DNA of 64,000 bases, taken from NCBI GenBank assembly GCA_041609995.1, contig JBFIPU010000002.1:3733-67732 (forward strand). The letters are read 5' to 3'. The position numbers and the translations under genes were made by a program. The number at the start of each line of letters is the position of its first letter. Positions within the stretch are counted from its first letter, which is position 1. The notes beneath the pieces were generated by a model. That model searched no databases. It saw nothing but the letters and a program-made list of their open reading frames with translations, and had not been told where the DNA came from. Shown in pieces: positions 2,003 through 21,700 of this stretch. Source of the DNA: Acidimicrobiia bacterium. GTDB lineage: Bacteria; Actinomycetota; Acidimicrobiia; Spongiisociales; SHLN01.

Positions 2003-2989
2003 ATGGCAGAGAAAACTCTCAGCGGAAAGCGGCGCCGCACCAGCCCTCGACGACGTATACTCCGGCGTTTCGCAGGAGCCGCCTTGACCAACAACCTGTT
2101 CCCAATCGACGAATGGCGTCCGAGTCGCGCCGTGATGCTCAAGCTGGTGGCCGACTACGGCCTCCTCACCGTCGGCGCCGTGGCGATGATCTACTCGTAT
2201 CGAACCTTCATGCTGCCCTTCGGCATCGCCGGCGGGGGAGTGGGAGGTCTGGGCCTGGTAGTCAACGAGTGGACGGGCTTTCCCCCCGGGTTGGCCATGC
2301 TGGTGGCGAACCTACCGGTCCTGTTCCTCGGGTATCGCAAGCTCGGGGGACCGCAGTTTCTGGTGCGCACGGCGTACGTGGTGGTCCTGTACAACCTGGG
2401 AGTCGATGTCATCGGTGACATCTTTCCTGACCGGATCTCCGATGACCTCTTGCTGATTGCGCTCTTCGGCGGTGTTCTTTCAGGTCTCGGGGGCGGGCTG
2501 GTCTACCGGGCGGGTGGAACCGCGGCCGGTACCGGCGTCATCAGCCGGGTGGTGCAGATCAGGACGGGGATCCCGGTGAGCCAGCTCTATCTGGTGATAG
2601 ACGGTTCGATTCTGACGCTTCAGGGCCTGACGTTCGGGTGGGAGAAAGCGCTCTACGGTGTGATCCTCCTCTTCGTCGCCGGCCTGGCGCTCGATTACGT
2701 GCTCGAAGGCCCCAGCGTTGTTCGCACGGTGACGGTCGTCACCGACCAGGCCGAGGAGCTGGCCGACTCCGTGTTCGCCACGATGAACGTCGGGGTGACC
2801 GGGTGGCGTGCGACGGGCATGTACACCGACGAGGAACGCGGTGTTCTCTTCTGCACCATCAGCCGCTCCGAGGCCCACCGGCTGGTCGACGCCGTGCGTG
2901 CGGTCGACCCCGATGCGTTCACCGTCATTGGCGTCGGCCATCAACGGCGCGGCGGATTGGTGCGCCCGGACGTGCCGGTCGACGTGTAA
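2003..2989 (+). CDS. YitT-family (DUF161/DUF2179) membrane protein
   Basis: Multi-TM N-terminal region with Gly-rich IAGGGVGGLG helix followed by C-terminal DUF2179-like soluble domain (..VVTVVTDQAEELADSVFATMNVGVTGWRATGMYT..). True start may be the internal Met at ~2135. Confidence 0.7.
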   Translation: MAEKTLSGKRRRTSPRRRILRRFAGAALTNNLFPIDEWRPSRAVMLKLVADYGLLTVGAVAMIYSYRTFMLPFGIAGGGVGGLGLVVNEWTGFPPGLAMLVANLPVLFLGYRKLGGPQFLVRTAYVVVLYNLGVDVIGDIFPDRISDDLLLIALFGGVLSGLGGGLVYRAGGTAAGTGVISRVVQIRTGIPVSQLYLVIDGSILTLQGLTFGWEKALYGVILLFVAGLALDYVLEGPSVVRTVTVVTDQAEELADSVFATMNVGVTGWRATGMYTDEERGVLFCTISRSEAHRLVDAVRAVDPDAFTVIGVGHQRRGGLVRPDVPVDV

Positions 2990-3001
2990 TAGCCTGGCCG
3001 G

Positions 3002-4600
3002 ATGGACGAACCATGGTGGAAGACGGGGGTCATCTACCAGATCTACCCGCGCAGCTTTCAGGACACGACCGGCAACGGCATCGGCGATCTCGCCGGCGTC
3101 ACCCGCCGGCTCGACTACGTCCGCGATCTGGACGTCGACGCCATCTGGCTCTCGCCGTTCTATCCGTCGCCCATGGCCGACTTCGGATACGACGTCGCCG
3201 ACTACACCGATGTCGACCCTCTGTTCGGGACGCTGGGAGACTTCGAGGAGCTGGTGTCCCAGGCCCACGGACGCGGGCTGAAGGTGATTGTCGACTACGT
3301 GGGCAATCACACCTCCGACCAACATCCCTGGTTCCAGGAGTCACGACGCGATCGCTCCAACCCGAAAGCCGACTGGTACGTGTGGGCCGATCCGGGGCCC
3401 GGCGGAGCTGTTCCCAACAACTGGCTCTCGATCTTCGGGGGGAGTGCGTGGCAGTGGGATGAGCCTCGGGGCCAGTTCTATCTGCACAGCTTTCTGAAGC
3501 AACAGCCGGATCTGAATTGGCGCAACCCCGGCGTCGAGCAGGCCATGATGGATGTGCTGCGGTTCTGGTTTGATCGGGGCGTGGACGGGGTCCGTATGGA
3601 CGTCATCCACATGATCCTGAAAGACCCAGATCTGCGGGACAATCCGCTCGGGGATCACTTGTCGGTCGAGACCTTCTATCCCGAATATGAAGCCCAGCAG
3701 CACATCCATGACAAGCTGCACCCAGACATCTACGACGTCTTTCGACGCATGCATGCATTGGCAGCTTCGTACGATGGCGACCGGGTCCTGATCGGCGAGG
3801 TTGAGCCGCTTCCATTCGATCAGTTCGTCAAGTTCTATGGCGGCGGCGCCGGCCTGCACCTGCCGTTCTCGTTTCACATGATCTACTCCGCCCGCGATTG
3901 GAAAGCGGTGGACGTCCGATCACTGGTCGACGAGTACGAGCGCTCGGTCGGCCCGTCGGATTGGCCGAACTATGTCCTGGGGAATCACGATGTGGATCGT
4001 CTCGCATCCCGGATTGGTCGCGACCAGGCCCGGATCGGGGCGTTGCTGCTGCTGACACTGCGGGGAACTCCCACCCTCTACTACGGGGACGAGCTGGCGA
4101 TGAGCAACTCCACCATTGCCGATCATCAGGTCCAGGATCCCCGCGCCCACGGGGTTTGGGGGACCGGACGGGACGGTTGCCGCAGTCCTATGCAGTGGGA
4201 TGCCGGGCCTCACGGGGGGTTCACGCACCACACCGCAGAGCCATGGCTGCCGCTGAACGAGGACAGCGCACTCTACAACGTGGCGGTCGAGTCGGAAGAT
4301 CCAGGCTCGATGCTGAACTTCTATCGACGGGTCCTCCGGTTTCGCCGCAGCCACCCCGTCATGCAGCTGGGCGCATACGAACCCCTCGACGTAGGCGAAA
4401 GTGTGTTCGCCTACACGCGCTCGCTCCCAGACGTCGAAGCCGTGATCGCCCTGAATTTCTCGGATGATCCCATCACGATCCGCCATCGTGCCCTGCTGGG
4501 AAAGGCGGCTGTCGTCGGGACGAGCACCCGGCCCAGCCCGGCGGTCGGCGACGCGCTGACGCTCGATGCCAATGAGGGGGTCATCCTCCTGGAGGGCTAG
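3002..4600 (+). CDS. GH13 alpha-glucosidase / oligo-1,6-glucosidase-type (alpha-amylase catalytic domain)
   Basis: MDEPWWKTGVIYQIYPRSFQD..GDLAGV..LDYVRDLDVDAIWLSPFYPSP..DFGYDV.DY..VDP.FGT...F..LV...H..G.KVI.D.V.NHTSDQHPWF: canonical GH13 subfamily signatures. Confidence 0.9.
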   Translation: MDEPWWKTGVIYQIYPRSFQDTTGNGIGDLAGVTRRLDYVRDLDVDAIWLSPFYPSPMADFGYDVADYTDVDPLFGTLGDFEELVSQAHGRGLKVIVDYVGNHTSDQHPWFQESRRDRSNPKADWYVWADPGPGGAVPNNWLSIFGGSAWQWDEPRGQFYLHSFLKQQPDLNWRNPGVEQAMMDVLRFWFDRGVDGVRMDVIHMILKDPDLRDNPLGDHLSVETFYPEYEAQQHIHDKLHPDIYDVFRRMHALAASYDGDRVLIGEVEPLPFDQFVKFYGGGAGLHLPFSFHMIYSARDWKAVDVRSLVDEYERSVGPSDWPNYVLGNHDVDRLASRIGRDQARIGALLLLTLRGTPTLYYGDELAMSNSTIADHQVQDPRAHGVWGTGRDGCRSPMQWDAGPHGGFTHHTAEPWLPLNEDSALYNVAVESEDPGSMLNFYRRVLRFRRSHPVMQLGAYEPLDVGESVFAYTRSLPDVEAVIALNFSDDPITIRHRALLGKAAVVGTSTRPSPAVGDALTLDANEGVILLEG

Positions 4601-5652
4601 ACCTCCTGGAACAGGTATGGACGGAGGACGTCGACGCGTTCTTCGAAGCCGTCCGGGTGCAGATACCACAGCATGGCGGTGACAGACGAGAGCAACGCGT
4701 TGCCATCCTGGGGGGTGAAGCAGAATCCGATGAGCTCGTTGCCGTTACGGACGGCCAAGGTTTCGATCGGGATCACCGTCTGGCTGAGGATGCGGCCGTA
4801 CCATCCATGATCGCGCCCGAAGGAGAAGATCTGGTTGGCCGATTTCTTGTACGTTGTCGCCATGCGGGTGTTGGCGGCGATCCGCTCCATCGCCTCGTCC
4901 ACACTCGTTTCGTGGTCAAGTTCGAGGCTGAACCAGAGGGAGTGCATGTATTGGGTGGGGACCTTCATGGCCGATGACCACAGGTTCAGATCGTGGCCCA
5001 GCGTGGCGAAGAGATCGTGGGCGTCGCGAGCATGGTGAGTGCCGAACCGCTCATCGGCGTGGCCACCCACAGTGGGGGCCGGAATGAAAGAGCCGTCCTG
5101 GCTGATGTCGTTGGCGCGCCGCATGCACAAGAATCTTCCGGAAATGAGGCGGCTCGTCCCGTCCCCGTCCAATGCCAGAGTCTTGATGAGCGAAGAGATG
5201 TTGTGGGTGTTGCACGAAACGATGTGGATGAACTTGTCCTCACCCTTTACCAGAGCTTGATCGTTGATGCCGCGGGCGTACATCTTGCCGAATCCATACT
5301 CAGAGCCCTGGGCCAGGAATCCCAGCGGACCGTCGATCGACTCGTAGAGGGCGTCCTTGTTCTTGTTTCCGACGGGCGTGCAGTCGATGACGACCGAGGA
5401 GCGGGCGACGGCGTCGAACGCGCTCCATTTTGGTGTCACTCCAATGGCCTCAAAGCCGCTCCACCGATCCTCGTCCACTGCCAGGCCGGCTCCGCGCCGG
5501 ATCAGGTCATCGATCTTCGAACGTTCTTCGACGAGCGGGGTGCGTTTGTGAAAGGTGACCTCATCGATGCCAAACGCTTCCCGGTTGTCGACGAGCAGAC
5601 CGATGAGTGGCTCGCCGATGGTCCCAGTCCCGACCACGTGGACGATGTTCAT
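4597..5652 (-). CDS. Type II (archaeal-type) glyceraldehyde-3-phosphate dehydrogenase-like NAD(P)-dependent dehydrogenase
   Basis: MNIVHVVGTGTIGEPL (Rossmann), VVIDCTPVG, IVSCNTHNISSLIKTL, cf. archaeal GAPDH IDCTPEG / VVSCNTTGL active-site Cys region. Start set at MNIV (5652). Confidence 0.5.
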   Translation of the reverse strand: MNIVHVVGTGTIGEPLIGLLVDNREAFGIDEVTFHKRTPLVEERSKIDDLIRRGAGLAVDEDRWSGFEAIGVTPKWSAFDAVARSSVVIDCTPVGNKNKDALYESIDGPLGFLAQGSEYGFGKMYARGINDQALVKGEDKFIHIVSCNTHNISSLIKTLALDGDGTSRLISGRFLCMRRANDISQDGSFIPAPTVGGHADERFGTHHARDAHDLFATLGHDLNLWSSAMKVPTQYMHSLWFSLELDHETSVDEAMERIAANTRMATTYKKSANQIFSFGRDHGWYGRILSQTVIPIETLAVRNGNELIGFCFTPQDGNALLSSVTAMLWYLHPDGFEERVDVLRPYLFQEV

Positions 5653-8050: not shown

Positions 8051-9640
8051 CTAGGTGCTGACGGCCTGGGGGAGCAGCTCTTGGGCAGGGATCGTGAGGA
8101 ACTCTTCGAAGTTCTCTGATAGGGCCACCTGCAGGAACACCGATGAGGCGCGGGCGACGCCCAGCTGTTCGTAGGCGTCATCACCCATCTCTTCCCGCCA
8201 TCGGGCGAGCTCCTCCGCTGTCAGCTCATGGACCAGTTCGGTCGTGACGGCCCGGCCGTCGTCGAGGCTGGCCCCGTGGCGGACCCACTGCCAGATCTGG
8301 GAGCGGCTGATTTCGGCGGTCGCCGCGTCCTCCATGAGGTTGAAGATGGCGGCGGCTCCGGTCCCGTTTATCCAGGAGGTGATGTAGCGAATACCGACCG
8401 AGATGTTCTTGCGAAGGCCCGCCTCGGTGATCGTTCCGGTGGGCACGGCGAGCAAGTCTGCCTGTGTGATCCAGCCGACCGGTCCCGGATTGGCGATCTG
8501 GTTCGGTGCGCCGCCGAGGACCCGGGCGAAAGCATCCATGGCGACGTCGATCAGGTCCGGGTGGGCAACCCAGGTGCCATCGTGACCCTTGTGGGCCTCC
8601 TTGTCCTTGTCAGCCTTGACCTTGGCCAGCGCCCGATCCGTGATGGTGGGGTTGGACCGATCCGGGATGAATGCCGCCATGCCCCCCATGGCGTGTGCTC
8701 CCCGGCGGTGGCAGGTGTGAACGAGGAGATCGGTGTACGCCTCCATGAACGGCACCGACATCGTCACCTGGTCCCGATCCGGCATCACGAACGCCGGATC
8801 ACTCCGGAGCTTCTTGATGACCGAAAAGATGTAGTCCCAGCGGCCGGCGTTGAGGCCGGCGGAGTGATTCCTCAGCTCGTAGAGGATCTCGTTCATCTCG
8901 AAAGCAGCCGGCAGTGTCTCGATGAGGACGGTTGCCTTGATTGTGCCCTGCGCGATGTCGAGGTGATCCTGGCTGAAGACAAACACGTCATTCCAGAGGC
9001 GAGCTTCGAGGTGTGACTCGAGCTTGGGAAGGTAGTAATACGGTCCGGTGCCGCGAGAGATCAGTTCTCGCCCATTGTGAAAGAGATACATCCCGAAATC
9101 GAACAGCGACGCACTCAGAGGCTCGCCGTCGATCGTGACGCTTCGCTCTTCTAGGTGCCATCCCCGCGGTCGGACCATCAGCACTGCCAGCTGCTCTCCG
9201 AGCTGGTAGATCTTGCCGTTCTGCTCGAGCTCGATCGATCGTCGCACGGCGTCCTTCAGGTTGATCTGGCCGCCGATCGTGTTGGCGTAGGTGGGAGAGT
9301 TGGAATCCTCGAAATCGGCCATGAACGCCTTGGCCCCACTGTTGAGAGCATTGATGATCATCTTGCGATCGACCGGGCCGGTGATCTCGACCGTGCGGTT
9401 CTCGAGGTCCGGCGGAATCGGGGCGATGGTCCAGTCGCTCGTCCGGATCGACTCGGTGGAAGGAAGGAAATCGGGTTTCACGCCCCGATCAAACGCCTCC
9501 TGGCGACCGCGGCGGGTATCGAGCAGCGCAAGGCGCCGGTGATCGAACCGTCGGTGGAGCTCCGCCACGAACGCAAGGGCGTCTTCTGTGAGGATTTCGG
9601 AGGCTCGTGGGTGGTCCGACGGGGTGTGATGGATGTTCAT
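8051..9640 (-). CDS. aceB: Malate synthase A
   Basis: 529 aa; malate synthase A-type sequence (..[63 protein letters not shown]..). Directly upstream of aceA on the same strand. Confidence 0.95.
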
Positions 9641-9915
9641 ACGCTCATAATTATTGATAGATTTTCGACCGCCGACAGATTCGCCCGGTAAGAATGAGTG
9701 ATATTATCAATAGGGCAAGATCTGCACAGTCGCGAGCGGGCGAGCAAACGAGCATCGGGCGCGACTCGCCAATGGCGGGCCCGACCGTGACGAGGCAGGT
9801 CAGAAACCACCGGAAGAAGCCGATCGAAAGCAAAAGACGACCGATCCCGGACATGAGATCACGGGGTTCGGGTGGCAGCCACCCGAACCATCGGACCCGG
9901 ATAGGAGACACAGCA

Positions 9916-10016
9916 CACGTGAACACGGACACATGAACACGGACACATGAACACGGACACATGAACACGGACACATGAACACCGACACATGAACACCGAC
10001 ACATGAACACCGGGAC
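9916..10016. repeat. Seven tandem copies of a 14-bp unit (GAACACGGACACAT; last copies GAACACCGACACAT / GAACACCGGGACAT) in the aceB-ramB divergent promoter; the final copy contains the ramB-like ATG
   Basis: Read directly: ..acacgtGAACACGGACACAT x4, GAACACCGACACAT x2, GAACACCGGGACATtt.. Generates spurious repeat-derived ORFs on both strands (9651..10127, 9800..10018). Confidence 0.9.
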
Positions 10017-11448
10017 ATTTGGCCGAAGAGTTCGCCACTTCCGGAAGGAAGCGGGACTCACCCTCGAGGAATTGGGGGCGCTGGTCGGCAGGCCCGCACC
10101 GTACCTGTCCAACATCGAGACCGGCAAGCGGGAGCCGAAGCTGGGCGTAGTTCAGGACCTGGCAAATGCGCTGGGGATCAGCTCACAAGCGCTGCTGGAG
10201 GAGACCGCGCCCACCGAACGCGACCGCCTCGAGCTCGAGCTGGAGACGGCCCAACGCCATCCGTTGTATGCCGAGCTCGGCTTGCCACACCTCAAGCCCA
10301 CGGCCAGGATGCCCGACCTCGCCCTCCACCATCTGGTGGAGCTGTTTCGGGGGATGGTTTCGTCACGCGAGCTCGCCCCGGACGCGATGCGGGTGGCGAC
10401 GACCCAGCTTCGTTCCGAGATGGCGCGCCGCGACAACTACGTCGGCGAGATCGAGGACGTTGCCAGCGCCACGCTGGCCAAGTCCTCTTACCAGGGAACC
10501 GGGCCGGTGGCGCAAGCGCAGCTGTTGGAGATCCTCGATGCGTTCGGCTTCTCGATTGCCCGGGTGTCCGACCTTCCGCGGACGACGCGCTCGGTCGCCG
10601 ATCTCGCCAACCGAACCATCTACCTTCCCCAACGGGACGCTCTTCGGACCCGTGACGCCCGGTCTGTCCTGCTGCAGACCCTCGCCCATTTCGCGCTGGA
10701 GCACGTCGACCCCGAAGACCTCGAAACGTTTCTTCGTCAGCGTATCGAGGCCAACTACTTCGCCGGAGCGGTGCTGGCGCCGGAAGAGGCCGCCGTGGCG
10801 TTTCTGCGGGCCGAGCAAGAGGATCGGAACCTGTCGGTGGGCGATCTGAAAGAGGTCTTTTACGTGTCGTATCAGATGGCGGCCCACCGATTCACCAACC
10901 TCGCCACCCGCCACCTCGATATCCCGGTTCACCTCGTGCGGAGCGACGAGGCCGGGATCATCTGGCAGGTCTATGAGAACAACGGCGTACCGCTGCCCCG
11001 GGCGGCCGATGGCAGCGTCGAGGGCCAGCGGCTGTGCAAGGAGTGGGGAACGCGAGCTGTCTTCAAGTCACCCGACAAATACTCGCTTCACTACCAGTAC
11101 ACCGACACCACCAACGGCACCTACTGGTGCGCGTCGCACATCATCGTCGACAGTGAGCCGTTGCATGCGGTCACGGTCGGCACCGACTTCGAGCATGTTC
11201 GGTTCTTCCGCGGAAGGGAAACCGAGCGCCATACGGCCAGCGGGTGCCCGGACGGGCCGTGCTGCCGGACGCCTTCGCCGGGCCTGGCGGAGCGCTGGGC
11301 GGGGCACGTGTGGCCGTCCGTGATCGGACGCTCTCATCCTGGAGCACCGGTTCCTGGTGTCTTCGCCGGTGTCGACATGGTCGAGATCTACGAATTCCTT
11401 GAAACACATGCACAAGACGAGAATCAGATATCGGATCGGGTAGAGTGA
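10003..11448 (+). CDS. ramB: RamB/ScfR-like transcriptional regulator (XRE-family HTH + ImmA/IrrE-type DUF955 domain)
   Basis: N-term HTH GRRVRHFRKEAGLTLEELGALVGRPAPYLSNIETGKREPKLGVVQDLANALGIS. Long C-terminal short-chain-fatty-acyl-CoA-regulator-type domain. Divergent from aceB/aceA, the arrangement known for ramB-icl in Corynebacteriales. Confidence 0.8.
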   Translation: MNTGTFGRRVRHFRKEAGLTLEELGALVGRPAPYLSNIETGKREPKLGVVQDLANALGISSQALLEETAPTERDRLELELETAQRHPLYAELGLPHLKPTARMPDLALHHLVELFRGMVSSRELAPDAMRVATTQLRSEMARRDNYVGEIEDVASATLAKSSYQGTGPVAQAQLLEILDAFGFSIARVSDLPRTTRSVADLANRTIYLPQRDALRTRDARSVLLQTLAHFALEHVDPEDLETFLRQRIEANYFAGAVLAPEEAAVAFLRAEQEDRNLSVGDLKEVFYVSYQMAAHRFTNLATRHLDIPVHLVRSDEAGIIWQVYENNGVPLPRAADGSVEGQRLCKEWGTRAVFKSPDKYSLHYQYTDTTNGTYWCASHIIVDSEPLHAVTVGTDFEHVRFFRGRETERHTASGCPDGPCCRTPSPGLAERWAGHVWPSVIGRSHPGAPVPGVFAGVDMVEIYEFLETHAQDENQISDRVE

Positions 11449-13448: not shown

Positions 13449-14600
13449 CTACGAATCGTCGGACTGATCGACCAGCAGCCCGGCGGTGATCAGCTGAGCG
13501 ATCAACTCATCGACGTCGGAACCGGCAGTACCGACGTCGATGTTGTAGGAGCTGACGACAGCGGCCACGGTTTCTGACCGCTCCCGCCCGTTCGCCACCT
13601 GGTCCCAGATGAAGGCAGAGGTTCCTGTCAGGCGAACAACCTGTCCGCCGGCCGTGTCGGCCACCACGACAGATTCCTCGTCCTGGGCGTACAGCGTGGA
13701 CGGAGCCAGCCGCATCCAGCCGCTCCATTCGCTGATGGTGCGGATCGGCGTATCGGTCGCCTGGTTCTTGAGACACAGCTCGGGCGGCACCAACCGCCAT
13801 CCGCTCTCGCTCGTATCGAGAGCTCGATTCCAGAATCGGATATCTGGCTCGTTCCACGGAAACACGACGTGGTCCGGTTGGCCGTCCCAGTAGCGGTCGT
13901 CGTGCTCGGTCCACCGCTGCTCCCAATCACCGTGGTCGTCCCCCAGCCGCTCCGGAGCGTGATCCACGAGGTCGACGCCACTCACCACCGAAACCACCCT
14001 GGGCTCGGCTGCAGTAATGGCGGACCGCAGCTGCGGGGTCGAGAACAGCGGCGCGAACACGATTTCACTCGCCTCGAGCCTCGCCAGATGACGCCGGAAC
14101 TGATCTCCCGAGTAGGCGACGTCGTCGAACACGACCAGCGGCCGGGCCTCCGCCTCCGGCTCCGGATCCCCTTGCCCGAGCAGGTACGACATGACCCCGA
14201 GCACGAACCAGCCGCCGCGGGGGATGGCACTCAGCGGCCAGTGCGTGATCCCAGCCCCCAACTCCTCACGCAATCGCCCGGCCAGCGAGCGGCAGGCAGC
14301 CTCGACGCCCGGATAGTCCACATAGCGGGTATGAGGCGCCACGTGGGCCAGCATCCAGTGCAGGGCTGTCAAGCGTTGGAGATCGGCTTCGTCGAAGCGG
14401 CCGGCGATGCCCGCGAGGCCGGTGGCGGGCCTCACCACGAGCTGCGGCTGGTTCATCTGCCGGAGAAGCGGGCTCGACTGGATTCCACGACACGCAGCCA
14501 CTGTTGGGGGCGCGCCGATCCTCTCGCTCATCGGTGAGAAGAACGCGAGGGCAGGGGAGAGGTCTAGAGGTTCGAGGTGTAGCGTTTGGGCTGAGGCCAC
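13449..14600 (-). CDS. Fusion protein: N-terminal type-I phosphoribosyltransferase-like domain + C-terminal PqqD-like RiPP recognition element (RRE); putative leader-guided lasso-peptide tailoring enzyme
   Basis: Central PRPP-loop-like motif RPLVVFDDVAYSGDQFRRHLARL. C-terminal ~85 aa (ESVVVADTAGGQVVRLTGTSAFIWDQVANGRERSETVAAVVSSYNIDVGTAGSDVDELIAQLITAGLLV) has the PqqD/RRE pattern. Begins 9 nt after the precursor stop. Track start is GTG at 14600; internal Mets at residues 24 and 48 are alternatives. Confidence 0.6.
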   Translation of the reverse strand: MASAQTLHLEPLDLSPALAFFSPMSERIGAPPTVAACRGIQSSPLLRQMNQPQLVVRPATGLAGIAGRFDEADLQRLTALHWMLAHVAPHTRYVDYPGVEAACRSLAGRLREELGAGITHWPLSAIPRGGWFVLGVMSYLLGQGDPEPEAEARPLVVFDDVAYSGDQFRRHLARLEASEIVFAPLFSTPQLRSAITAAEPRVVSVVSGVDLVDHAPERLGDDHGDWEQRWTEHDDRYWDGQPDHVVFPWNEPDIRFWNRALDTSESGWRLVPPELCLKNQATDTPIRTISEWSGWMRLAPSTLYAQDEESVVVADTAGGQVVRLTGTSAFIWDQVANGRERSETVAAVVSSYNIDVGTAGSDVDELIAQLITAGLLVDQSDDS

Positions 14601-14609
14601 CCGGGCAAA

Positions 14610-14747
14610 CTAGTTGCCCATTCCTTGCCCCATACCGCTGCCGAAGTTGGCGTCAAAGCCCGGGTTACTTGGCCCGTTCTGTGTGAGCTCGGCAATCGAG
14701 CCCAGCCGCTCCACCTTCGGTTTGGTGTATTCCAGCTTCTTGTCCAT
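14610..14747 (-). CDS. Lasso peptide precursor (45 aa), absent from the ORF track
   Basis: Hand translation of the minus strand: MDKKLEYTKPKVERLGSIAELTQ-NGPSNPGFDANFGSGMGQGMGN*. Leader matches the lasso consensus Y-x2-P-x-L/V-x3-G-x5-T-x with Thr at -2. Core has an Asp at position 9 (8 if Gly is residue 1) for the macrolactam. RBS AAGGGG 7 nt upstream of the ATG. Sits between the cyclase and the RRE-fusion gene on the same strand. Confidence 0.8.
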   Translation of the reverse strand: MDKKLEYTKPKVERLGSIAELTQNGPSNPGFDANFGSGMGQGMGN

Positions 14748-14837: not shown

Positions 14838-16610
14838 CTACCAGTGATTGCGCAACCACAACTCGAGCGTCACCAGGGCCCAGAAATTGCTATCGAGGGG
14901 TCGGCCCTGACGGAATGCGGCGACGTGTTCGCGCACGCCTTGCGGTTGCGCGTATCCGGCCCGTACCGAGGACATGTCCGTCGTCAGATCGTCGAGCCTG
15001 CGGTTGGGATCGTGGCGAAGATGCTGGTCGAAGAAGGCCACCGGGATCACCTTCGCCAGGGGTTCCACCACCGCCGGAGGGGCCATGGTCTGCAGAGCGA
15101 GCCGGGTCAGGCGTTTGGGACAGCTCGGAGTCTGGACCAGGTGCTGGGGGATGCTGACCACGAGACGGGCGATCCGCAGGTCGCTCCACGGGTCGACCAT
15201 CCGTACGCCCCGGGCCGCATGCATGCGTTGGGACCAGGATGCCACCCGCATCTGAAATGGCGACAGAATCGTCCGCTGCCGTCGACCCGCAGGGCCTCCC
15301 AGGTCTGCGGGCGCGGAGAATCTGGTGAGGAACTGGCCCATGTTCGTCGCCTCTGCGAAGTCGGGGTTCACCCATGATTGCCAGGGCCTCTTGCGGTGCT
15401 TGGCCAGTTCCAGCCGGACGGGTTGGGGAAGCTTGTCCACGAGGAGGGGCCGTACTGCCTCCTTCCAGGCCGACGCCAAGGCCGAGCGACGACCGAATGA
15501 AGCCAGTTCAGACCATGTGCGGCGGATACCCAGATCGGTCAGCATGCCCGACCAGGCGTAGACCTCGGATCCCGTCATCAGATCACCCCGGTTGCCCAAC
15601 ATCATCGCCTCGACGCCTCCATCGGCCGCCCGGCCGACCGTCGCGTGCAGCAGCGGCTCGTAGTGGCCATAGAGCGGATCGTTCAAATCCGGACCCGCTG
15701 GGAATTCGGCCAGCGGCGGCGACGAGTCGGCGTCGATCTCGGTGACGGGGATCTCGAGCGCAGCCGCCAGAGGGTCGCTGAGGTGGCGCTCGTCCACCGT
15801 GGGAGTGGTCGGGAAGGCGAAACTGAATGCTCGCACCGACGTGTCATTCCGGACCTGGGCGGCGGCTGCTGCCAGCGACCCGCTGTCGAGTCCACCGCTC
15901 AGCATGATGCCCGCCGATCGCGGCGGCAGTCGTACTCGCACAGCCTCCTGGAGGAGGTGCGCCAACTCGGCTGTTGCATCGTCGGGGACCGCCCCCGGTT
16001 CGAGGTCCCAGAACCCGGCGCTCGCCACCCCCCGGGGCGAGACCGTCACTACGTGGCCGGGGGGGACCTGCTCGATCCCTTCGAAGAACGTCCACGTTGG
16101 GTCGAAAACGCCGCCCGCCAGATGTCCGGCCACTGCGCGCTCGTTGATCCTCTTGTCCACCAGCCCCGATGCCAGGAGATGGCTCGGCTCGGACGCAAAC
16201 GCCACCAGGCCATCCGAGTGCCAGAAGACCAGCGGACGCAGCGACATCGGGTCGCGGCCCAGGAGGATTGCCCTGGCATCGAAGTCGATGACCGCGAAGG
16301 CGTAGTCGCCCAGGCAACCAGAAGCAGCAGACGTTCCCAGCTTCTCATAGCCGGACAGAATCATCGCAGCAGGGGGTTCGTCGGCGTGGTCGAAGCGAGC
16401 ATCCGCCACAACTAGACGCCGCCCGTCTGCCGACCAGCCAAGGCCAGCAGACTCCCACTGGAGTGGCAGCGAATAGACCCGAGCCGATTCGTTGCCATCT
16501 GTGACCGGATCGCCATCGCGATCACCGGCCGCCGCCCGAGCCATGGCGGACACGGTTCCCGGATCAACGGGTCGACCGTTCAGGTCCACGATGCCGCCGA
16601 TTCCGGGCAT
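14838..16610 (-). CDS. Lasso peptide cyclase (asparagine synthetase B-like, C protein)
   Basis: N-term vestigial glutaminase-like MPGIGGIV..RPLVFWHSDGLVAFASE; PP-loop ATP-binding motif SGGLDSGS; 590 aa. Confidence 0.9.
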   Translation of the reverse strand: MPGIGGIVDLNGRPVDPGTVSAMARAAAGDRDGDPVTDGNESARVYSLPLQWESAGLGWSADGRRLVVADARFDHADEPPAAMILSGYEKLGTSAASGCLGDYAFAVIDFDARAILLGRDPMSLRPLVFWHSDGLVAFASEPSHLLASGLVDKRINERAVAGHLAGGVFDPTWTFFEGIEQVPPGHVVTVSPRGVASAGFWDLEPGAVPDDATAELAHLLQEAVRVRLPPRSAGIMLSGGLDSGSLAAAAAQVRNDTSVRAFSFAFPTTPTVDERHLSDPLAAALEIPVTEIDADSSPPLAEFPAGPDLNDPLYGHYEPLLHATVGRAADGGVEAMMLGNRGDLMTGSEVYAWSGMLTDLGIRRTWSELASFGRRSALASAWKEAVRPLLVDKLPQPVRLELAKHRKRPWQSWVNPDFAEATNMGQFLTRFSAPADLGGPAGRRQRTILSPFQMRVASWSQRMHAARGVRMVDPWSDLRIARLVVSIPQHLVQTPSCPKRLTRLALQTMAPPAVVEPLAKVIPVAFFDQHLRHDPNRRLDDLTTDMSSVRAGYAQPQGVREHVAAFRQGRPLDSNFWALVTLELWLRNHW

Positions 16611-16624
16611 GGTCTCAGACTAGG

Positions 16625-17599
16625 TTGCGCTCGGAAACCTGCTGGGCGGGAGCTATGAACGATTATCGGATCTACGGCCGCAATCTCCGGTCTTCATTCC
16701 GTTTCGAAAACCGGCTGCTCCCGGCTGCCGGCGAGCCCGAGCTCTATTTTGGGGCGGTGGCAGGACCGGCCTTTGACGCCTCGGTCCACAAACTGGTCTA
16801 TCAAACCGAACCGCCCATCTACGACGGGAAGGCCGAGTTGTACCTCTTCAAGGGAGACGACGAGTTCGTCTTTGAATTCACGGGCGCCAGCCGCTTCCAT
16901 GTGAAGAGTCAGGAGATCCTCTTCGAGGTCACCCATCCCGAGTATTCGTTTCTGACCGAGATCTATTTCCTGGGAATCATCATGAGCGCCTGGCTGGAAC
17001 TCCAGGGTGTCATCGCTCTCCACTCGGCGGCGGTGGCGGTCGGTGACAGGGCGGCGGGGTTCGTCGGGCTCAACCAGGCGGGCAAGAGCACGCTGGCGGC
17101 GTCCCTCATGAACAGAGGTCATGGCCTGATGACCGATGACGTGTTGGCCGTCGAGAAAGTCGAAGGCCGGTTCGTGGCCCACCCCGGCTATCCCCAGATG
17201 CGCATGTGGCCGGAAATGGCGATGGCATTCGGCCTCGATCCCGGGTCGCTGCCCAGGGTGCATCCAGAATTCGACAAAGTGCGCGTGCCGGTCGGGGAGG
17301 GAGGATTCGGGCGCATGCGCCGCGAGGCAGCAGAGCTCTCTCGCATCTATGTCGTGAACCGCGATGACCGTGCAGACGCGCCGGCGGTTCAACCGATGAC
17401 TTCGTCCGAGGCGATGTCCGAGTTGTTGCGCACCTCCTTCGCCGGTCTCGTGCTGGGGGGGATCGAGGTCAGCCACACGAGGTTGCCGGTCGTAGCACAA
17501 TTGGTGGGAGAGGTTCCGGTGCGTCGCCTGACGTATCCGGCCAACCGGTTCGAAGCGGCGTTGGAGATGATCGAGGAGGATGTGCGTGGCAGGCTATAG
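16625..17599 (+). CDS. HPr kinase/phosphorylase C-terminal-domain-like kinase (lasso-peptide kinase family)
   Basis: P-loop region LHSAAVAVGDRAAGFVGLNQAGKSTLAASLMNRGHGLMTDDV typical of HprK-like kinases reported in phosphorylated lasso peptide clusters. Start may be the Met at 16655. Confidence 0.7.
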   Translation: MRSETCWAGAMNDYRIYGRNLRSSFRFENRLLPAAGEPELYFGAVAGPAFDASVHKLVYQTEPPIYDGKAELYLFKGDDEFVFEFTGASRFHVKSQEILFEVTHPEYSFLTEIYFLGIIMSAWLELQGVIALHSAAVAVGDRAAGFVGLNQAGKSTLAASLMNRGHGLMTDDVLAVEKVEGRFVAHPGYPQMRMWPEMAMAFGLDPGSLPRVHPEFDKVRVPVGEGGFGRMRREAAELSRIYVVNRDDRADAPAVQPMTSSEAMSELLRTSFAGLVLGGIEVSHTRLPVVAQLVGEVPVRRLTYPANRFEAALEMIEEDVRGRL

Positions 17600-18524
17600 C
17601 CTCGTTCAGTACGGCGAGATGTTGGCTGATCGAGTTCGAACCTCTGCCTACGTCCGGGCCATGGAGGAGACCATCAAGGCGGGTGACGTCGTGCTGGATC
17701 TGGGGGCCGGCCCCGGCTTCTTTGCGATCAAAGCGGCTTTGATGGACGCCAGGAAGGTCTATGCCATCGAGCCCAATCCCAGCATCGCGCTCGGGCGAGA
17801 GCTGGCCCACACAGCCGGGGTCACCGAGCGGGTCGAGTTCATCCACGCGCTCTCGACCGAAGTCGAATTGCCAGAGAAGGCGGATGTGATCGTGGCCGAT
17901 TTGCGCGGTGCGCTGCCGCTGTACGACGGCTCCATCACGACGATTGCCGACGCCCGCGATCGACTCCTGGCGCCGGGCGGTACATTCATCCCGCTGCGAG
18001 ATGACCTCTACTGCGCCCCCACCTCCGGGGCCCTGAGCCGGGGCTACTCGATATGGACCTCCGAGGAAACCGGGCTCGATCTCACTCCGGGAGCCAAATA
18101 CGCCCTGAACACGTGGGATGCGAGACGCGTTGATCCGTCAATGCTCGCCGCCGGCCCGAGGAAATGGGCGAGCATCGATTATCTCTCGGTCGACAGTGCC
18201 GGGATCAGCGGTCGCGCCGTTTGGAAAGCCGACCATCCTTTCGAAGCGGATGGTTTGTGCCTCTGGTTCGAAACCGAGCTGATCCCGGGCATCGGATACT
18301 CGAGCGGACCGTTGGGGGAGGCCACCACGTATCGCATGGCGTTCTTTCCTCTTAGCGAGACCCTCCGCGTCGATGCCGGTGGACAACTGGAGGTGGAGAT
18401 CGAATCGAGCCCAATTGGCGACTCCCCAGCCTGGACCTGGCAGGCGCGGACGGTCGACGCTGCTGGAGCAATACACGAGCCGGCCAAGCAGTCGAGCCTG
18501 CTGTCCATGCCCATTCCCCGCTGA
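17580..18524 (+). CDS. PRMT-like (protein arginine N-methyltransferase fold) class I SAM-dependent methyltransferase
   Basis: RTSAYVRAMEETIKAGDVVLDLGAGPGFFAIKAALMDARKVYAIEPN..VEFIHALSTEVELPEKADVIVADLRG..RDRLLAPGGTFIP aligns motif-by-motif with the PRMT1 core ([53 protein letters not shown]), plus a C-terminal beta-barrel-like domain. Confidence 0.65.
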   Translation: MCVAGYSLVQYGEMLADRVRTSAYVRAMEETIKAGDVVLDLGAGPGFFAIKAALMDARKVYAIEPNPSIALGRELAHTAGVTERVEFIHALSTEVELPEKADVIVADLRGALPLYDGSITTIADARDRLLAPGGTFIPLRDDLYCAPTSGALSRGYSIWTSEETGLDLTPGAKYALNTWDARRVDPSMLAAGPRKWASIDYLSVDSAGISGRAVWKADHPFEADGLCLWFETELIPGIGYSSGPLGEATTYRMAFFPLSETLRVDAGGQLEVEIESSPIGDSPAWTWQARTVDAAGAIHEPAKQSSLLSMPIPR

Positions 18525-18800
18525 TCAAACGACCCGGATCAGGCCCTTCTGGTGAAGATCCGACAGCAGTTCGTGCAGGTCTTGGCGGAGCGTCTCGTCA
18601 TCGACGTCGAACTGACCCGCCAGCTGCTCACGCGCTGCCGCAATGGAATCAGCGCCGCCGACCGCCTTCCACATCGCGAGCGCAACCGGGTCGAGCGAGT
18701 AATACACCTCGGTTCCGAGATGCAAGATGACAGCCTCGCCATCGGCCAGCTCCTGGACCAGTGCGTCGGGTGCCAGCTCAACCCGTCTCGTCTCATCCAT
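18525..18800 (-). CDS. Lasso peptide biosynthesis B1 protein (PqqD-family RRE)
   Basis: 91 aa, MDETRRVELAPDALVQELADGEAVILHLGTEVYYSLDPVALAMWKAVGGADSIAAAREQLAGQFDVDDETLRQDLHELLSDLHQKGLIRVV: classic PqqD-like pattern. Confidence 0.85.
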   Translation of the reverse strand: MDETRRVELAPDALVQELADGEAVILHLGTEVYYSLDPVALAMWKAVGGADSIAAAREQLAGQFDVDDETLRQDLHELLSDLHQKGLIRVV

Positions 18801-18809
18801 GGCAACCTC

Positions 18810-19268
18810 TCAGTCGAACCGTTTGCCTTCTACCGGACCGGCAAAGGGAGCGTACAGCGTTGCGACGTCGTCATCGTCATTCACAACGGAGCCGTCGACC
18901 TCCACCCAGGCGTGAAAAAGGATCGCACCCTCCTCCTTCTTGACCCCGAAGCGCACGTCGGCGGGAATACCATGTTTTCGCAGGAGCGCCAGTGCCGCTG
19001 TCGACCGGGCGAGACAGTTCGGGCGGCCGATCGAGTATTTGGCAGCCAGAGAAACCAGAGATGCGATATGACGAGCTTCCTCGATTGTCGCCGACCTGGG
19101 TGCGGGTCGCCGGGCCAGCAAATCGTGCATTCGCTGAAATCCCGCCAGGCGGAAGCCGATACGGGTTATATGGAGCAGCCACCAGGCGCGAAACAACAGA
19201 CGACGGTCTCTGCCGGTGAGATCTCTGACGAGGATTCGAATCCGATTGGCCCAGACGGAGCGCAGCAT
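18810..19268 (-). CDS. Lasso peptide biosynthesis B2 protein (transglutaminase-like leader peptidase)
   Basis: Catalytic Cys/His/Asp region RPNCLARSTAALALLRKHGIPADVRFGV..GAILFHAWVEVDGSVVNDDD. Start chosen at Met-29 (19268); the track ORF extends to 19352. Confidence 0.85.
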   Translation of the reverse strand: MLRSVWANRIRILVRDLTGRDRRLLFRAWWLLHITRIGFRLAGFQRMHDLLARRPAPRSATIEEARHIASLVSLAAKYSIGRPNCLARSTAALALLRKHGIPADVRFGVKKEEGAILFHAWVEVDGSVVNDDDDVATLYAPFAGPVEGKRFD

Positions 19269-19324
19269 GCTCCAAAGCGTATCGGCTATGGCCGGCACGG
19301 GTCCGCCGCCATCGCACGGTTTCG

Positions 19325-20455
19325 GTGGGCGACAATGACATGGTGACCGCAATGCCGCGCCACGTGCCCCCCTTCTGGCCGGACGAGACGGAACTCGGCC
19401 TGTTGCGGGCTGCCCTCCTCCCAGATCAGCGGGCGATCCACGCCTGGCGGCAATTGGACCTGAGCTCGGTCGGTGCGCGTCACGAAACCTGGAGCCTGCT
19501 TCCCCTGGCGTTTTTCAATCTCAAGGATCTGGGGGTCCCCATCAACGACATGGCCGAGGCGGCCGCCGCCTACAACCGGACACTCGATACCAATCGCGTG
19601 CTTGCTCAGGCGGCCTCGGAGACGATGGCGTCTTTTCTTCGCGAGGGCATCGATCACGTCGCCCTCAAGGGCCTGGCGTTGTTGACGACGGTGTATCCGG
19701 ATCTGGGAACGCGTCCGATGTTCGATGCCGATGTGATGGTGCGAAGTCTCGACGTGAAACGGGCTGCCCGGGTGTTGGGCCGGGCCGGATACCATCCCGC
19801 CACCCCACTCGAGGATGCCCTTCTGGCCACCAGAGCGAGTGCTCAGTTCGTTAATGCGGACGGGATCGACATCGACCTCCATTGGCACGCCCTCGGCGGA
19901 TACGTGGCCGAGCCATTCGACGATGCGCTGTGGCAGGGGCGGGTCACCACCACCTCGCCGCTGGGGATGGAGATGAAGGTGCTGAGCCGGGCCGAGCAGC
20001 TCACCCAGGTGATCGGGCATGCACTCCGCGCCGGGTGGCCAGGCACGCGATGGTGGGCCGATATCGCCCTGCTTCTCAGATCGTCCTGGACCGATGACCA
20101 GTGGTCACGTCTCGGCGAGTTGGCTTCTCTGTTCCAGATGACGCTTCCCATGTCGGGAATCCTGACGTACCTGCGTGACCATGTCGGCATCGATGTTCAG
20201 CGTGAGGCCTTCGAAGTCCTAGAACGCAACCGCCCGTCTCGATCAGAGAGGATTCAACGCCGGGCGCTCAGCAGGCTCGATCCGGGTTCTACGACAGCGG
20301 CCTTGCTGCGGTCATGGGCCACGTATGCCGCCGTGCAAGCCGCCGGGGAACGCCGCCGGGGGCCGGTTGGCTTCACGCGCTTCACATGGAGGTACCTCGG
20401 ATCGGGCTCTGATGCCGGCAATGCACTCGAAGCCATACGTCGCAAACTCAGCTGA
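19325..20455 (+). CDS. Nucleotidyltransferase-family protein (NTP_transf_5/pfam14907-like)
   Basis: ..VALKGLALLTTVYPDLGTRPMFDADVMVRSLDVKRAARVLGRAGYHP.. matches the 'uncharacterised nucleotidyltransferase' family commonly found in kinase-containing lasso clusters. Divergent from B2; the true start may be a few codons downstream. Confidence 0.6.
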   Translation: MGDNDMVTAMPRHVPPFWPDETELGLLRAALLPDQRAIHAWRQLDLSSVGARHETWSLLPLAFFNLKDLGVPINDMAEAAAAYNRTLDTNRVLAQAASETMASFLREGIDHVALKGLALLTTVYPDLGTRPMFDADVMVRSLDVKRAARVLGRAGYHPATPLEDALLATRASAQFVNADGIDIDLHWHALGGYVAEPFDDALWQGRVTTTSPLGMEMKVLSRAEQLTQVIGHALRAGWPGTRWWADIALLLRSSWTDDQWSRLGELASLFQMTLPMSGILTYLRDHVGIDVQREAFEVLERNRPSRSERIQRRALSRLDPGSTTAALLRSWATYAAVQAAGERRRGPVGFTRFTWRYLGSGSDAGNALEAIRRKLS

Positions 20456-20486: not shown

Positions 20487-21617
20487 TCAGAAGAACGAAG
20501 AGTTTTTGTATTCGGTGAGCTGTTCGAGGTTTTCCTGGATGAAGCGGCTCTCGAATTCGGTCCGCACCTCGTCCTGGATCTCCTTGAGCGGCGCCTGGCA
20601 CTCGTGGTCGGCCACGGCCGTGCGGATCTCTTCTTCGCTCAACGCCCGGATCTCGGCAGTGGTGGCCTCGTCGAACTGGGGGCCCTGATTGAACTGATTG
20701 AAGAAGTCCTCCTGCTCCTCAGGGGTGGTGGTTTCGAAGAACTCCTGGATCTCTTCTTCCGACCAGCCCGCAAACGGGTCGACGTAGGCCTCCTCCATCT
20801 TCCTCCAGAAGACTTCGGCCGCTTGATAGAAATACTCCGGCGGCTCCCGGGGGCTGTCGTAGGAGAACCCCTTGTCCGCCATGCACGATGACCAGGCGTT
20901 CTCGGCCTCGACCATGCGGGGATCGGCGCTGATCTGCTGCTCCAGACGGTCGAAAGCCTCGAAAATCTCCTCGTAGTCGAACTCGTCGTTCTCTTCGAAG
21001 TTCCCATAGATCTCGGTGTGAGCTCGGTTGTAACAACCGTTATCGGGATCGAACTCGTTGACCTGTTCGTCCACGTACTCACCCGTCTCCGGGTCGAGCG
21101 CCGGCTCCTCCCAGACTCCATAGAGGTCTTCGTAGTACTGCTCACGCTCGATCTCGGTGAGAGAGTCGACGTACTCCTGATTGGGATCCACGAACTCTTG
21201 CGCCGGCTGTTCGACGTCAGACCACGGATCATCGAGGATGAATGTGGTGGCCCCGTAGCCGAAACGAGCAGCCCGTTCCTGTTCCGTCAGGTCTCCGAAG
21301 GGATCGAAGAACTCGGCCTCGCCGTAGTCGACCGGCCGGTATTCCCAACCGAATTCGGCCATGCAACCCGCAACGACCTCTTCGACCTGGCGCTGCCGGT
21401 CCCGCTCGGCTGCGGGATCGTATCCGTCTCCCCACCCGAAGAACTCCTCGAGCGTGGCAGCCGGGCTCCCGGGATCTTCGCCGTTCTCCGGCGCGGTCGA
21501 AGCGGCTGTGACGTCCGCCTCCGGCTCTCCGTCGTCCGGCGAGGTCGATCCTCCTCCGCAAGCCGCCATGGCCAGCGCTGCCAGCAGCAGGATTGCCGGC
21601 ACCAGCCAACGCGTCAT
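20487..21617 (-). CDS. Highly acidic, aromatic-rich secreted lipoprotein of unknown function
   Basis: Lipobox LLAALAMAACGGGS. Very Asp/Glu/Phe/Tyr/Trp-rich with repeated E-x-F/E-E-F motifs; no recognisable catalytic domain. Confidence 0.6.
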   Translation of the reverse strand: MTRWLVPAILLLAALAMAACGGGSTSPDDGEPEADVTAASTAPENGEDPGSPAATLEEFFGWGDGYDPAAERDRQRQVEEVVAGCMAEFGWEYRPVDYGEAEFFDPFGDLTEQERAARFGYGATTFILDDPWSDVEQPAQEFVDPNQEYVDSLTEIEREQYYEDLYGVWEEPALDPETGEYVDEQVNEFDPDNGCYNRAHTEIYGNFEENDEFDYEEIFEAFDRLEQQISADPRMVEAENAWSSCMADKGFSYDSPREPPEYFYQAAEVFWRKMEEAYVDPFAGWSEEEIQEFFETTTPEEQEDFFNQFNQGPQFDEATTAEIRALSEEEIRTAVADHECQAPLKEIQDEVRTEFESRFIQENLEQLTEYKNSSFF

Positions 21618-21700
21618 GGAATGGAACCGGTCGTCCATCGTCCTCTCCTATGGAAGGTCAGTCAGGATACGCCGGGATACCACCTGGTGCGGGGCTGTGC

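Follow-up and report, generated by a model that had tools for sequence, protein, structure and literature searches.

In a 64,000-nt stretch of an Acidimicrobiia bacterium genome (assembly GCA_041609995.1, contig JBFIPU010000002.1, positions 3,733 to 67,732; hereafter the window), a lasso peptide cluster contains a gene, here called T, whose product joins a region resembling type I phosphoribosyltransferases (PRTases) to a PqqD-type recognition element (RRE) of pathways for peptides made on ribosomes and modified after translation (RiPPs). Judged from the modelled structure and from sequence profiles, T has four parts: an N-terminal alpha/beta domain, a PRTase core similar to xanthine-guanine PRTase (XGPRT) and TT1426, a conserved extension, and an RRE of the lasso B1 type. 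Our preferred reading, which we hold at about even odds, is that T is a leader-guided tailoring enzyme of an uncharacterized family that would depend on 5-phosphoribosyl 1-pyrophosphate (PRPP) and would act, together with a neighboring kinase (K), at a conserved serine of the lasso core. What is said below about the function of T, K, and the precursor was inferred computationally.

Architecture of T and the fold of its PRTase-like region

Gene T, a PRTase-like/RRE fusion delimited from the list of open reading frames (ORFs), its homologues, and an AlphaFold2 (AF2) model, is the 383-aa ORF at 13449-14600 (- strand), with a GTG start codon at 14600 and its stop codon at 13449-13451. The ORF is present as originally predicted, and the motif RPLVVFDDVAYSGDQF is read from its translation at residues 153-168. 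Support for the GTG start comes from a strand, modelled with confidence at residues 8-12, that lines up with homologous N-termini. The precursor ORF (14610-14747, - strand) ends with a TAG at 14610-14612, in agreement with the earlier statement that T begins 9 nt past the precursor stop. Co-translation with the precursor had been called probable from this spacing; no obvious Shine-Dalgarno sequence was found in the 9-nt gap, so T and the precursor are only possibly translationally coupled.

The N-terminal alpha/beta domain (residues ~1-90; 14331-14600, - strand) was delimited from the AF2 secondary structure and from conservation in two alignments, A1 and A2. R57 and G67 are near-invariant in this domain, for which we found no Pfam or NCBIfam match and no family assignment. 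It is followed by the type I PRTase core with intact pyrophosphate (PPi) and PRPP loops (residues ~91-215; 13956-14330, - strand). Next comes the conserved extension (residues ~216-290; 13731-13955, - strand), which was recognized from invariant columns in A2 and carries the pattern YWxGQPDHVxFPWNEPD...CLKN. The lasso-B1-type RRE, matched by Pfam PF05402, forms the C-terminus (residues ~295-383; 13452-13718, - strand).

The AF2 model of T, built with 39 homologues, has a mean pLDDT of 94.6 and a pTM of 0.89, and it contains the alpha/beta core fold of type I PRTases. In a Foldseek search with this model, Escherichia coli XGPRT and the Pyrococcus horikoshii purine PRTase 1vdm ranked next after B1 proteins, with a probability of 1.00 and target-normalized TM scores of 0.5-0.58. 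In a further structural comparison, the second-best PRTase match was 5vog, a PRTase-like protein crystallized with ppGpp. We also used the N-terminal 290 residues alone as a profile, taken from alignment A2 (41 sequences from more than eight phyla). This profile matched TT1426 (E 1.3e-3), the orotate PRTase (OPRT) 2yzk (E 6.6e-3), 1vdm, and XGPRT.

The profile alignments place the functional loops in register. The iPRGG of T corresponds to the PPi loops lPRGG, vaRGG, and vsRGG of solved PRTases, with the PRGG, ARGG, and SRGG loops of TT1426, 1vdm, and XGPRT as its counterparts; its vvvDDcalsG corresponds to the PRPP loop VDDgvaTG; and its cFPWnE corresponds to the C-terminal vFPWeE of 1vdm. 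The PPi loop, located after strand 1, is P127-R128-G129-G130 (14211-14222, - strand), and it is invariant in A1 and A2. The PRPP loop, L155-VVFDDVAYSGDQ-167 (14100-14138, - strand), reads LVVFDDVAYSGDQ at residues 155-167, and its D159, D160, and G165 are invariant. Fifteen columns are invariant among the 41 sequences of A2: P127, R128, G129, G130, L141, D159, D160, G165, L185, L211, F247, W249, E251, D253, and C276. The PPi loop (P127-G130) and the PRPP loop (D159, D160, and G165) account for seven of them, and the extension for another five (F247, W249, E251, D253, and C276).

Of 190 family proteins, none lacks the PRPP loop hhhDDxxx[S/T]G (S or T precedes the G in 188); 185 have the PPi loop [PA]RGG, and 173 the FxWxExD motif of the extension. 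Both loops are also kept in versions of T that lack the RRE or are split. The conservation of the PRPP and PPi loops is therefore the pattern of a functional ligand site and not of a decayed pseudoenzyme. A chance occurrence of the motif was rejected, because the fold match is strong and the N-terminal profile puts both loops in register; the motifs are, moreover, kept across the 190 homologues. The remote-homology and AlphaFold checks that the original prediction had proposed for the N-terminal region thus bear out the PRTase resemblance. The extent was revised: the core covers only residues ~91-215 and not the whole ~280 aa, with ~90 aa preceding and ~75 aa following it.

Several departures from canonical PRTases count against a PRPP-dependent activity. 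The flexible catalytic loop, the hairpin that joins helix 2 to the PRPP strand and shuts over the active site, is missing; every alignment to solved PRTases (OPRT, 1vdm, and XGPRT) opens a gap of 13-20 residues there, and in T a short loop (residues 141-154, mean pLDDT 79) takes its place. The Asp that serves XGPRT as a purine-specific general base aligns to Tyr163 in T and, in most family members, to Leu. At the final Thr of the canonical PRPP motif (xxx[S/T]Gx[S/T]), the family has Arg and T has Gln (Gln167, at a position where ~90% of the family have Arg). T itself has no match to PF00156 at E<=1 and so does not reach the Pfam gathering threshold; eight of the 39 homologues do match this family, with a best E of 9.1e-7. 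The match of T to PF24390 (PRTase-CE) at residues 151-200 is below threshold (17.2 vs 27 bits) and covers only model positions 104-161 of 253, that is, the PRPP loop; 26 of the 39 homologues have similarly weak matches. Membership of T in PRTase-CE was rejected on this score and on the loop-only match. By modelled fold and motifs, T is a divergent member of the type I PRTase superfamily that lacks the flexible loop and falls short of the PF00156 threshold. Its extension probably takes the place of the nucleobase "hood".

The same departures bear on whether the domain might perform other chemistry, either pyrophosphoryl or phosphoryl transfer in the manner of PRPP synthetase, which has the same fold, or transfer from another 5-phosphoribosyl donor, so that polyphosphate or some other group would be placed on the conserved serine. 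The missing flexible loop and a 5-phosphate loop reading SGxR instead of TGxT mark a divergence from canonical PRTases, and polyphosphorylated lasso peptides are known (PMC8498205). We nevertheless consider this very unlikely: the closest structures and profiles are XGPRT, purine PRTase, OPRT, and TT1426 and not PRPP synthetase, T contains one PRTase domain where PRPP synthetases contain two, and in its acidic DD pair and its PPi loop T matches enzymes that use PRPP.

The C-terminal domain belongs to the PqqD/RRE superfamily. PF05402 matches residues 311-376 with an E of 1.7e-11 and 44.7 bits (gathering score 23.4), as the original prediction had led us to expect, and the domain has a winged-helix fold of three strands and three helices. 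The T family profile matches the lasso B1 proteins TbiB1 (E 3.6e-15) and TfuB1 (E 1.4e-9), and these are also the closest proteins in structure to the RRE of T. T stays below the NCBIfam cut-offs for B1 (NF033530 / NF033536; 34.5 vs 70 bits and 16.6 vs 80 bits). Membership of T in the lasso B1 proteins was rejected on these cut-offs, on its being a 383-aa fusion and not a stand-alone protein of ~90 aa, and on the presence of a B1/B2 pair elsewhere (18525-19352). The separate B1 named earlier is indeed present, a stand-alone PqqD RRE at 18525-18800 (- strand; PF05402 E 1.5e-16), beside the transglutaminase-like leader peptidase B2 at 18810-19352 (- strand; NF033537 91.5 bits vs a cut-off of 33; PF13471 E 6.2e-23). 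The RRE of T shares only ~27% identity over 44 aa with this B1, and its origin as a recent duplicate of B1 was rejected for that reason. Structure prediction together with fold and profile searches therefore upholds the fusion of a type I PRTase-like region to a PqqD-type RRE.

The lasso cluster, its precursors, and the T family

The cluster is a complete lasso cluster, with a precursor carrying a lasso leader, a cyclase, the B1 RRE, and the B2 protease. Precursor A (45 aa; 14610-14747, - strand) has the leader MDKKLEYTKPKVERLGSIAELTQ and the core NGPSNPGFDANFGSGMGQGMGN, and it matches NF033521 lasso_leader_L3 with 21.7 bits (cut-off 19). The lasso cyclase C, a homologue of Asn synthase, is encoded at 14838-16610 (- strand; PF00733 E 4.6e-26; NF033535 E 4.9e-46). 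The HPr-kinase-like kinase K, with the P-loop GLNQAGKST, is encoded at 16625-17599 (+ strand; Hpr_kinase_C E 5.9e-5; HprK_rel_A E 3.2e-8).

The cross-genome search for the fusion proposed in the original prediction returned hundreds of members. The size of this family had escaped the original prediction, as had the kinase partnership, the conserved Gly-Ser of the core, and the presence of T-K pairs outside lasso clusters, all described below. A word-indexed search gave 49 close homologues of ~380-400 aa, and an exhaustive profile search of 1.84 billion representatives gave 424 cluster representatives at E<=1e-30, a count that refers to clusters at 50% identity. Most of the best 150 of these 424 are ~380-420 aa long and match nearly the whole profile. 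Where the homologues are named at all, they are called only "PqqD family protein" or "hypothetical protein"; genome-mining tools are therefore likely to misread T as a second B1. A scan of one genome per species gave 78 T loci, from phyla that include Gemmatimonadota, Acidobacteriota, Actinomycetota, Chloroflexota, Cyanobacteria, Rhodothermales/Salinibacteraceae, Deinococcota, and Nitrospirota. The loci were annotated with iterated profiles of the window's own cluster proteins, and absences, especially of B2, may reflect dispersion of a cluster or fragmentation of metagenome-assembled genomes (MAGs).

T loci usually run C, A, T, K, and those of Gemmatimonadota run T, K, C. The cyclase gene adjoins T in 51 of 76 loci, and 33 of 65 loci have a lasso-type precursor whose gene ends just upstream of T. 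Linkage to the kinase was counted in the 55 loci fetched with 1.2 kb or more on each side of T. K was present in the fetched locus in 47 of them and no farther than 300 nt from T in 34, and the two genes often overlap. B2 was found in 23 T loci, the accessory nucleotidyltransferase gene N in 16, and the accessory methyltransferase gene M in 5. Most well-flanked loci keep a separate B1 and B2. The closest relatives, MAG loci from Acidimicrobiia (L002) and Actinomycetes (L003) at 49-50% identity, have the exact gene set and order of the window.

The relation of T to B1 is relevant to the notion that T is a second kind of B1, alternative or regulatory, which chaperones the leader for the cyclase or the protease and whose PRTase-like domain senses PRPP, GMP, or (p)ppGpp and gates maturation according to nutritional state. 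The B1-like structure of its RRE is in keeping with this, and so are several loci (L001, L012, and L024) that contain A, C, and T and have neither B1 nor B2 within the fetched flank. XGPRT-type enzymes are alarmone targets, and the ppGpp-bound 5vog is among the best PRTase matches. The idea is most unlikely all the same, given that most well-flanked loci, the window included, retain their own B1 and B2, that variants of T without an RRE exist, that the T-K pair also occurs without any cyclase, and that the close association with a kinase and with a conserved serine in the core speaks for core modification and not for regulation.

The variants of T are informative about which part does the work. 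In Deinococcota, an RRE-less T stands beside K in L045 (1265-2353) and L042 (2447-3367); these proteins end right after CLK(N/H)R (CLKHR in L045). In L071 (1329-2837), T is split, with an RRE gene, a precursor, and then an RRE-less T. Since RRE-less and split forms exist, the PRTase-like part would be the functional core and the RRE an accessory, as in other RiPP enzymes. The earlier proposal that the second RRE is dedicated to a leader-dependent modification, and does not replace B1, gains support from context: separate B1/B2 genes occur here and in at least 23 loci, the identity between the two RREs is low, and the RRE can be absent or encoded apart.

Four cyanobacterial loci (L038, 7058-11350; L036, L028, and L032) have the T-K pair placed after a gene for a CHAT (caspase-like) protease, and no lasso cyclase was found within 10 kb of these cassettes. 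The T-K pair therefore behaves as a portable, self-contained module. Directly after T in L038 there is a 50-aa peptide with a lasso-type leader, WNVPKLFNYGTVETMTQ, which has no GS motif. This was the only convincing precursor among the cyanobacterial CHAT-K-T cassettes, and none was found for the others. These cassettes may represent a separate, non-lasso peptide class.

The 52 precursors in T loci share a leader motif of the B1 type, YxxPxLxxxGxxxxxTx. In the main clade (23 core sequences, the window included), the core follows xGxTxPGxD-xxx-GS, with G2, G7, D9, G13, and S14 invariant (23/23) and P6 present in 22/23. G[S/T] occurs 3-7 residues after the ring acid in 42 of the 52 T-linked cores, and only three of the 52 end in Ser. 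By the Thr(-2) rule, Asn is the first core residue of the window precursor, which predicts a ring of nine residues, N1-D9. In the main clade, residue 1 varies (T/V/N/A) and G2 is invariant, which leaves the cleavage site uncertain by one residue and makes a G1-D8 ring possible instead. The core of the window precursor (14613-14678) has an unusual Gly/Met-rich tail, GSGMGQGMGN.

The candidate modification site is core Ser14, five residues after the ring Asp9; it is Ser37 of the precursor (codon at 14637-14639, - strand) and was proposed from conservation. The GS motif is kept in loci that have T and no K in the fetched flank (L011 and L012), which slightly favors this serine as the site of T itself. 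T-less lasso clusters within the same genomes have more distant K genes and different cores. Judged by sequence, the T-linked clusters form a distinct lasso subfamily, because their conserved serine is internal, whereas the serine targeted by known kinases is C-terminal. K genes beside T form a subgroup apart from the T-less K genes of the same genomes (E ~1e-110 vs ~1e-60 with the same profile in L009, L025, and L059).

Two side observations concern these loci. The contig of L059 carries, besides its T-type cluster, a second, T-less lasso cluster (2619-5575) whose core ends in Ser (...GDLTFS); the kinase of the T-less cluster matches the K profile far more weakly, with an E of 4e-57 vs 1e-107, which agrees with two kinase subfamilies that differ in target position. 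Two tandem lasso cyclase genes are present in L012 (382-4174), L013 (11766-15502), L014 (2348-6338), L041 (5254-9512), and L044 (5406-9427).

Proposed role of T and its relation to known systems

In the reaction that we propose, the RRE of T would dock the YxxPxLxxxG leader of the linear precursor, and the PRTase domain would bind Mg-PRPP and transfer a 5-phosphoribosyl group (+212.009 Da) to the core. Ser37 (core Ser14) would be the most likely acceptor, with T acting together with K. Two orders can be envisaged. In the first, K would phosphorylate the serine, and the phosphate would then attack C1 of PRPP, giving Ser-O-P-O-ribose-5-P (total +291.975 Da); this phosphodiester-linked ribose-5-phosphate would parallel the kinase-then-nucleotidyltransferase phosphoglycosylation of pseudomycoidin. 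In the second, T would ribosylate the serine hydroxyl directly, and K would act elsewhere. B1/B2 and C would then cleave the leader and close the lasso. The more specific claim, that the outcome is PRPP-dependent phosphoribosylation of a ribosomal peptide, on the serine hydroxyl or on a kinase-installed phosphate, and that T and the kinase form a portable module also used with CHAT proteases for a non-lasso peptide class, is put forward tentatively, as somewhat short of an even chance.

Not all of the evidence agrees with this proposal. Ser37 was chosen as the target from conservation only, and T/S4 is nearly as conserved as Ser14 (22/23 main-clade cores). The G[S/T] motif is absent from 10 of the 52 T-linked cores. 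We know of no type I PRTase that uses a peptide hydroxyl or phosphate as acceptor. Of the 55 fully flanked loci, eight lack K in the fetched flank, and B1 or B2 is missing there from several; the T-K partnership is therefore common without being obligatory, or else the clusters are dispersed.

The kinase is central to another explanation, in which T is a substrate-recruiting adaptor for K: the RRE would bring the precursor, and the PRTase-like domain would serve for docking or as an allosteric ligand module, and not as a transferase. K has no RRE of its own and would here have to hit an internal serine. Characterized lasso kinases recognize only a C-terminal Ser, with little sequence specificity (PMC8498205), and an internal one would call for extra specificity. 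The adjacency and frequent overlap of the T and K genes in most loci fit such a role, as does the missing flexible catalytic loop of T. On the other hand, pseudoenzyme scaffolds usually lose their catalytic motifs, whereas in T conservation is highest at the PRPP and PPi loops. An RRE-less T that persists beside K, as in L045 and L042, would make no sense for a pure RRE adaptor, and several loci with flanks of up to 10 kb contain T and no K; in L012 and L024, for example, A, C, and T are present and no K, B1, or B2 lies within the fetched flank. We therefore judge the adaptor explanation unlikely.

A leader-guided, PRPP-dependent enzyme would combine features of several known systems. T shares its PqqD-type RRE with the lasso B1 proteins TfuB1 (6jx3) and TbiB1 (5v1u); unlike them, its RRE is fused to a 290-aa enzyme-like part, it coexists with a separate B1, and it is not adjacent to B2. 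With XGPRT/Gpt, 1vdm, and TT1426-type proteins (1wd5), it has in common the alpha/beta core and, in register, xRGG, hhhDDxxx[S/T]G, and FPW(N/E)E. It differs from these in lacking the flexible catalytic loop, the purine-specific Asp base, and the nucleobase hood, and in having three added parts, namely the N-terminal domain, the conserved 75-aa extension with its acidic residues and invariant Cys, and the RRE. T is found in a RiPP cluster, whereas XGPRT-type enzymes act in nucleotide salvage. The TT1426-type predicted PRTases (1wd5), themselves uncharacterized, are assigned to COG1926.

The T clusters resemble the systems that phosphorylate paeninodin and phosphoglycosylate pseudomycoidin in having an HPr-kinase-like gene and, in the 16 loci with N, an NTP_transf_5 gene. 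Characterized lasso kinases phosphorylate the C-terminal Ser of the linear, leader-bearing precursor, and the pseudomycoidin nucleotidyltransferase adds hexoses to the phospho-Ser (PMC8498205). In the paeninodin and pseudomycoidin systems, the target is C-terminal and T is absent; the conserved serine of T-linked cores is internal. MicD, the ADP-ribosyltransferase of the triceptide minviopeptin (PNAS 2026), was presented as a significant breakthrough for ribosylation in RiPP biosynthesis (PMC12912966). The modification proposed for T would likewise be of the ribose-phosphate type. The group that MicD adds is ADP-ribose (+541 Da), with NAD as the presumed donor; T has the fold of a PRTase, would presumably use PRPP (+212 Da), carries its own RRE, and belongs to another RiPP class.

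The original prediction stated that no lasso or other RiPP tailoring enzyme with a PRTase-RRE fusion was known to it, and our literature searches returned nothing relevant that would contradict this: in the full texts covered, we found no PRTase in a lasso or other RiPP pathway and no such fusion, although some subscription papers fall outside this coverage and a description elsewhere is possible. T follows a known logic, an RRE joined to a catalytic domain, with an unprecedented catalytic domain, and its chemistry is probably unprecedented as well. RRE-fused tailoring enzymes diversify RiPP products, and each new catalytic domain has brought new peptide chemistry. If T uses PRPP, it would place a charged sugar-phosphate handle on lasso peptides, extend the PRTase superfamily to peptide acceptors, and mark out a lasso subfamily, recognizable by its conserved D-x3-G-S core, in at least 78 species-level genomes from many phyla. 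Phosphoribosylation, if true, would be a post-translational modification new to RiPPs, and type I PRTases would gain a further acceptor class, peptide O or phosphate. The earliest ribose-type modification of a RiPP found in the literature, the ADP-ribosylation of a triceptide, dates only from 2026 (PMC12912966). The prediction can be addressed with a short, defined gene set (A, T, and K) and an exact mass shift.

Accessory genes and other features of the window

Two accessory genes belong to the cluster. M, at 17580-18524 (+ strand), encodes a PrmA/PRMT-like methyltransferase (PF06325 E 3.8e-9). It overlaps the end of the K gene by 20 nt in the window, and the methyltransferase gene recurs in L002, L003, L020, L029, and L030. 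N, at 19325-20455 (+ strand), encodes a nucleotidyltransferase of the NTP_transf_5 family (PF14907 E 2.2e-32). On its side of the cluster, T is the last gene; beyond it lie a convergent msrB (SelR), a DUF520 gene, and unrelated genes. PADLOC returned no match for T, K, or N, and an anti-phage defense PRTase effector was rejected on this ground.

Beyond the N gene, the window encodes a very acidic 383-aa protein (20487-21638, - strand) with a lipoprotein-like N-terminus (…LLAALAMAACGG), to which no Pfam family was assigned. At 9915-10010, a 14-bp tandem repeat, ACACATGAACACGG, is present in 6.9 copies with 97% matches. The repeat lies directly upstream of, and overlaps the start of, a regulator gene with HTH_31 and Peptidase_M78 (IrrE-like) domains (10003-11448), with a malate synthase gene (8051-9640, - strand) as upstream neighbor.

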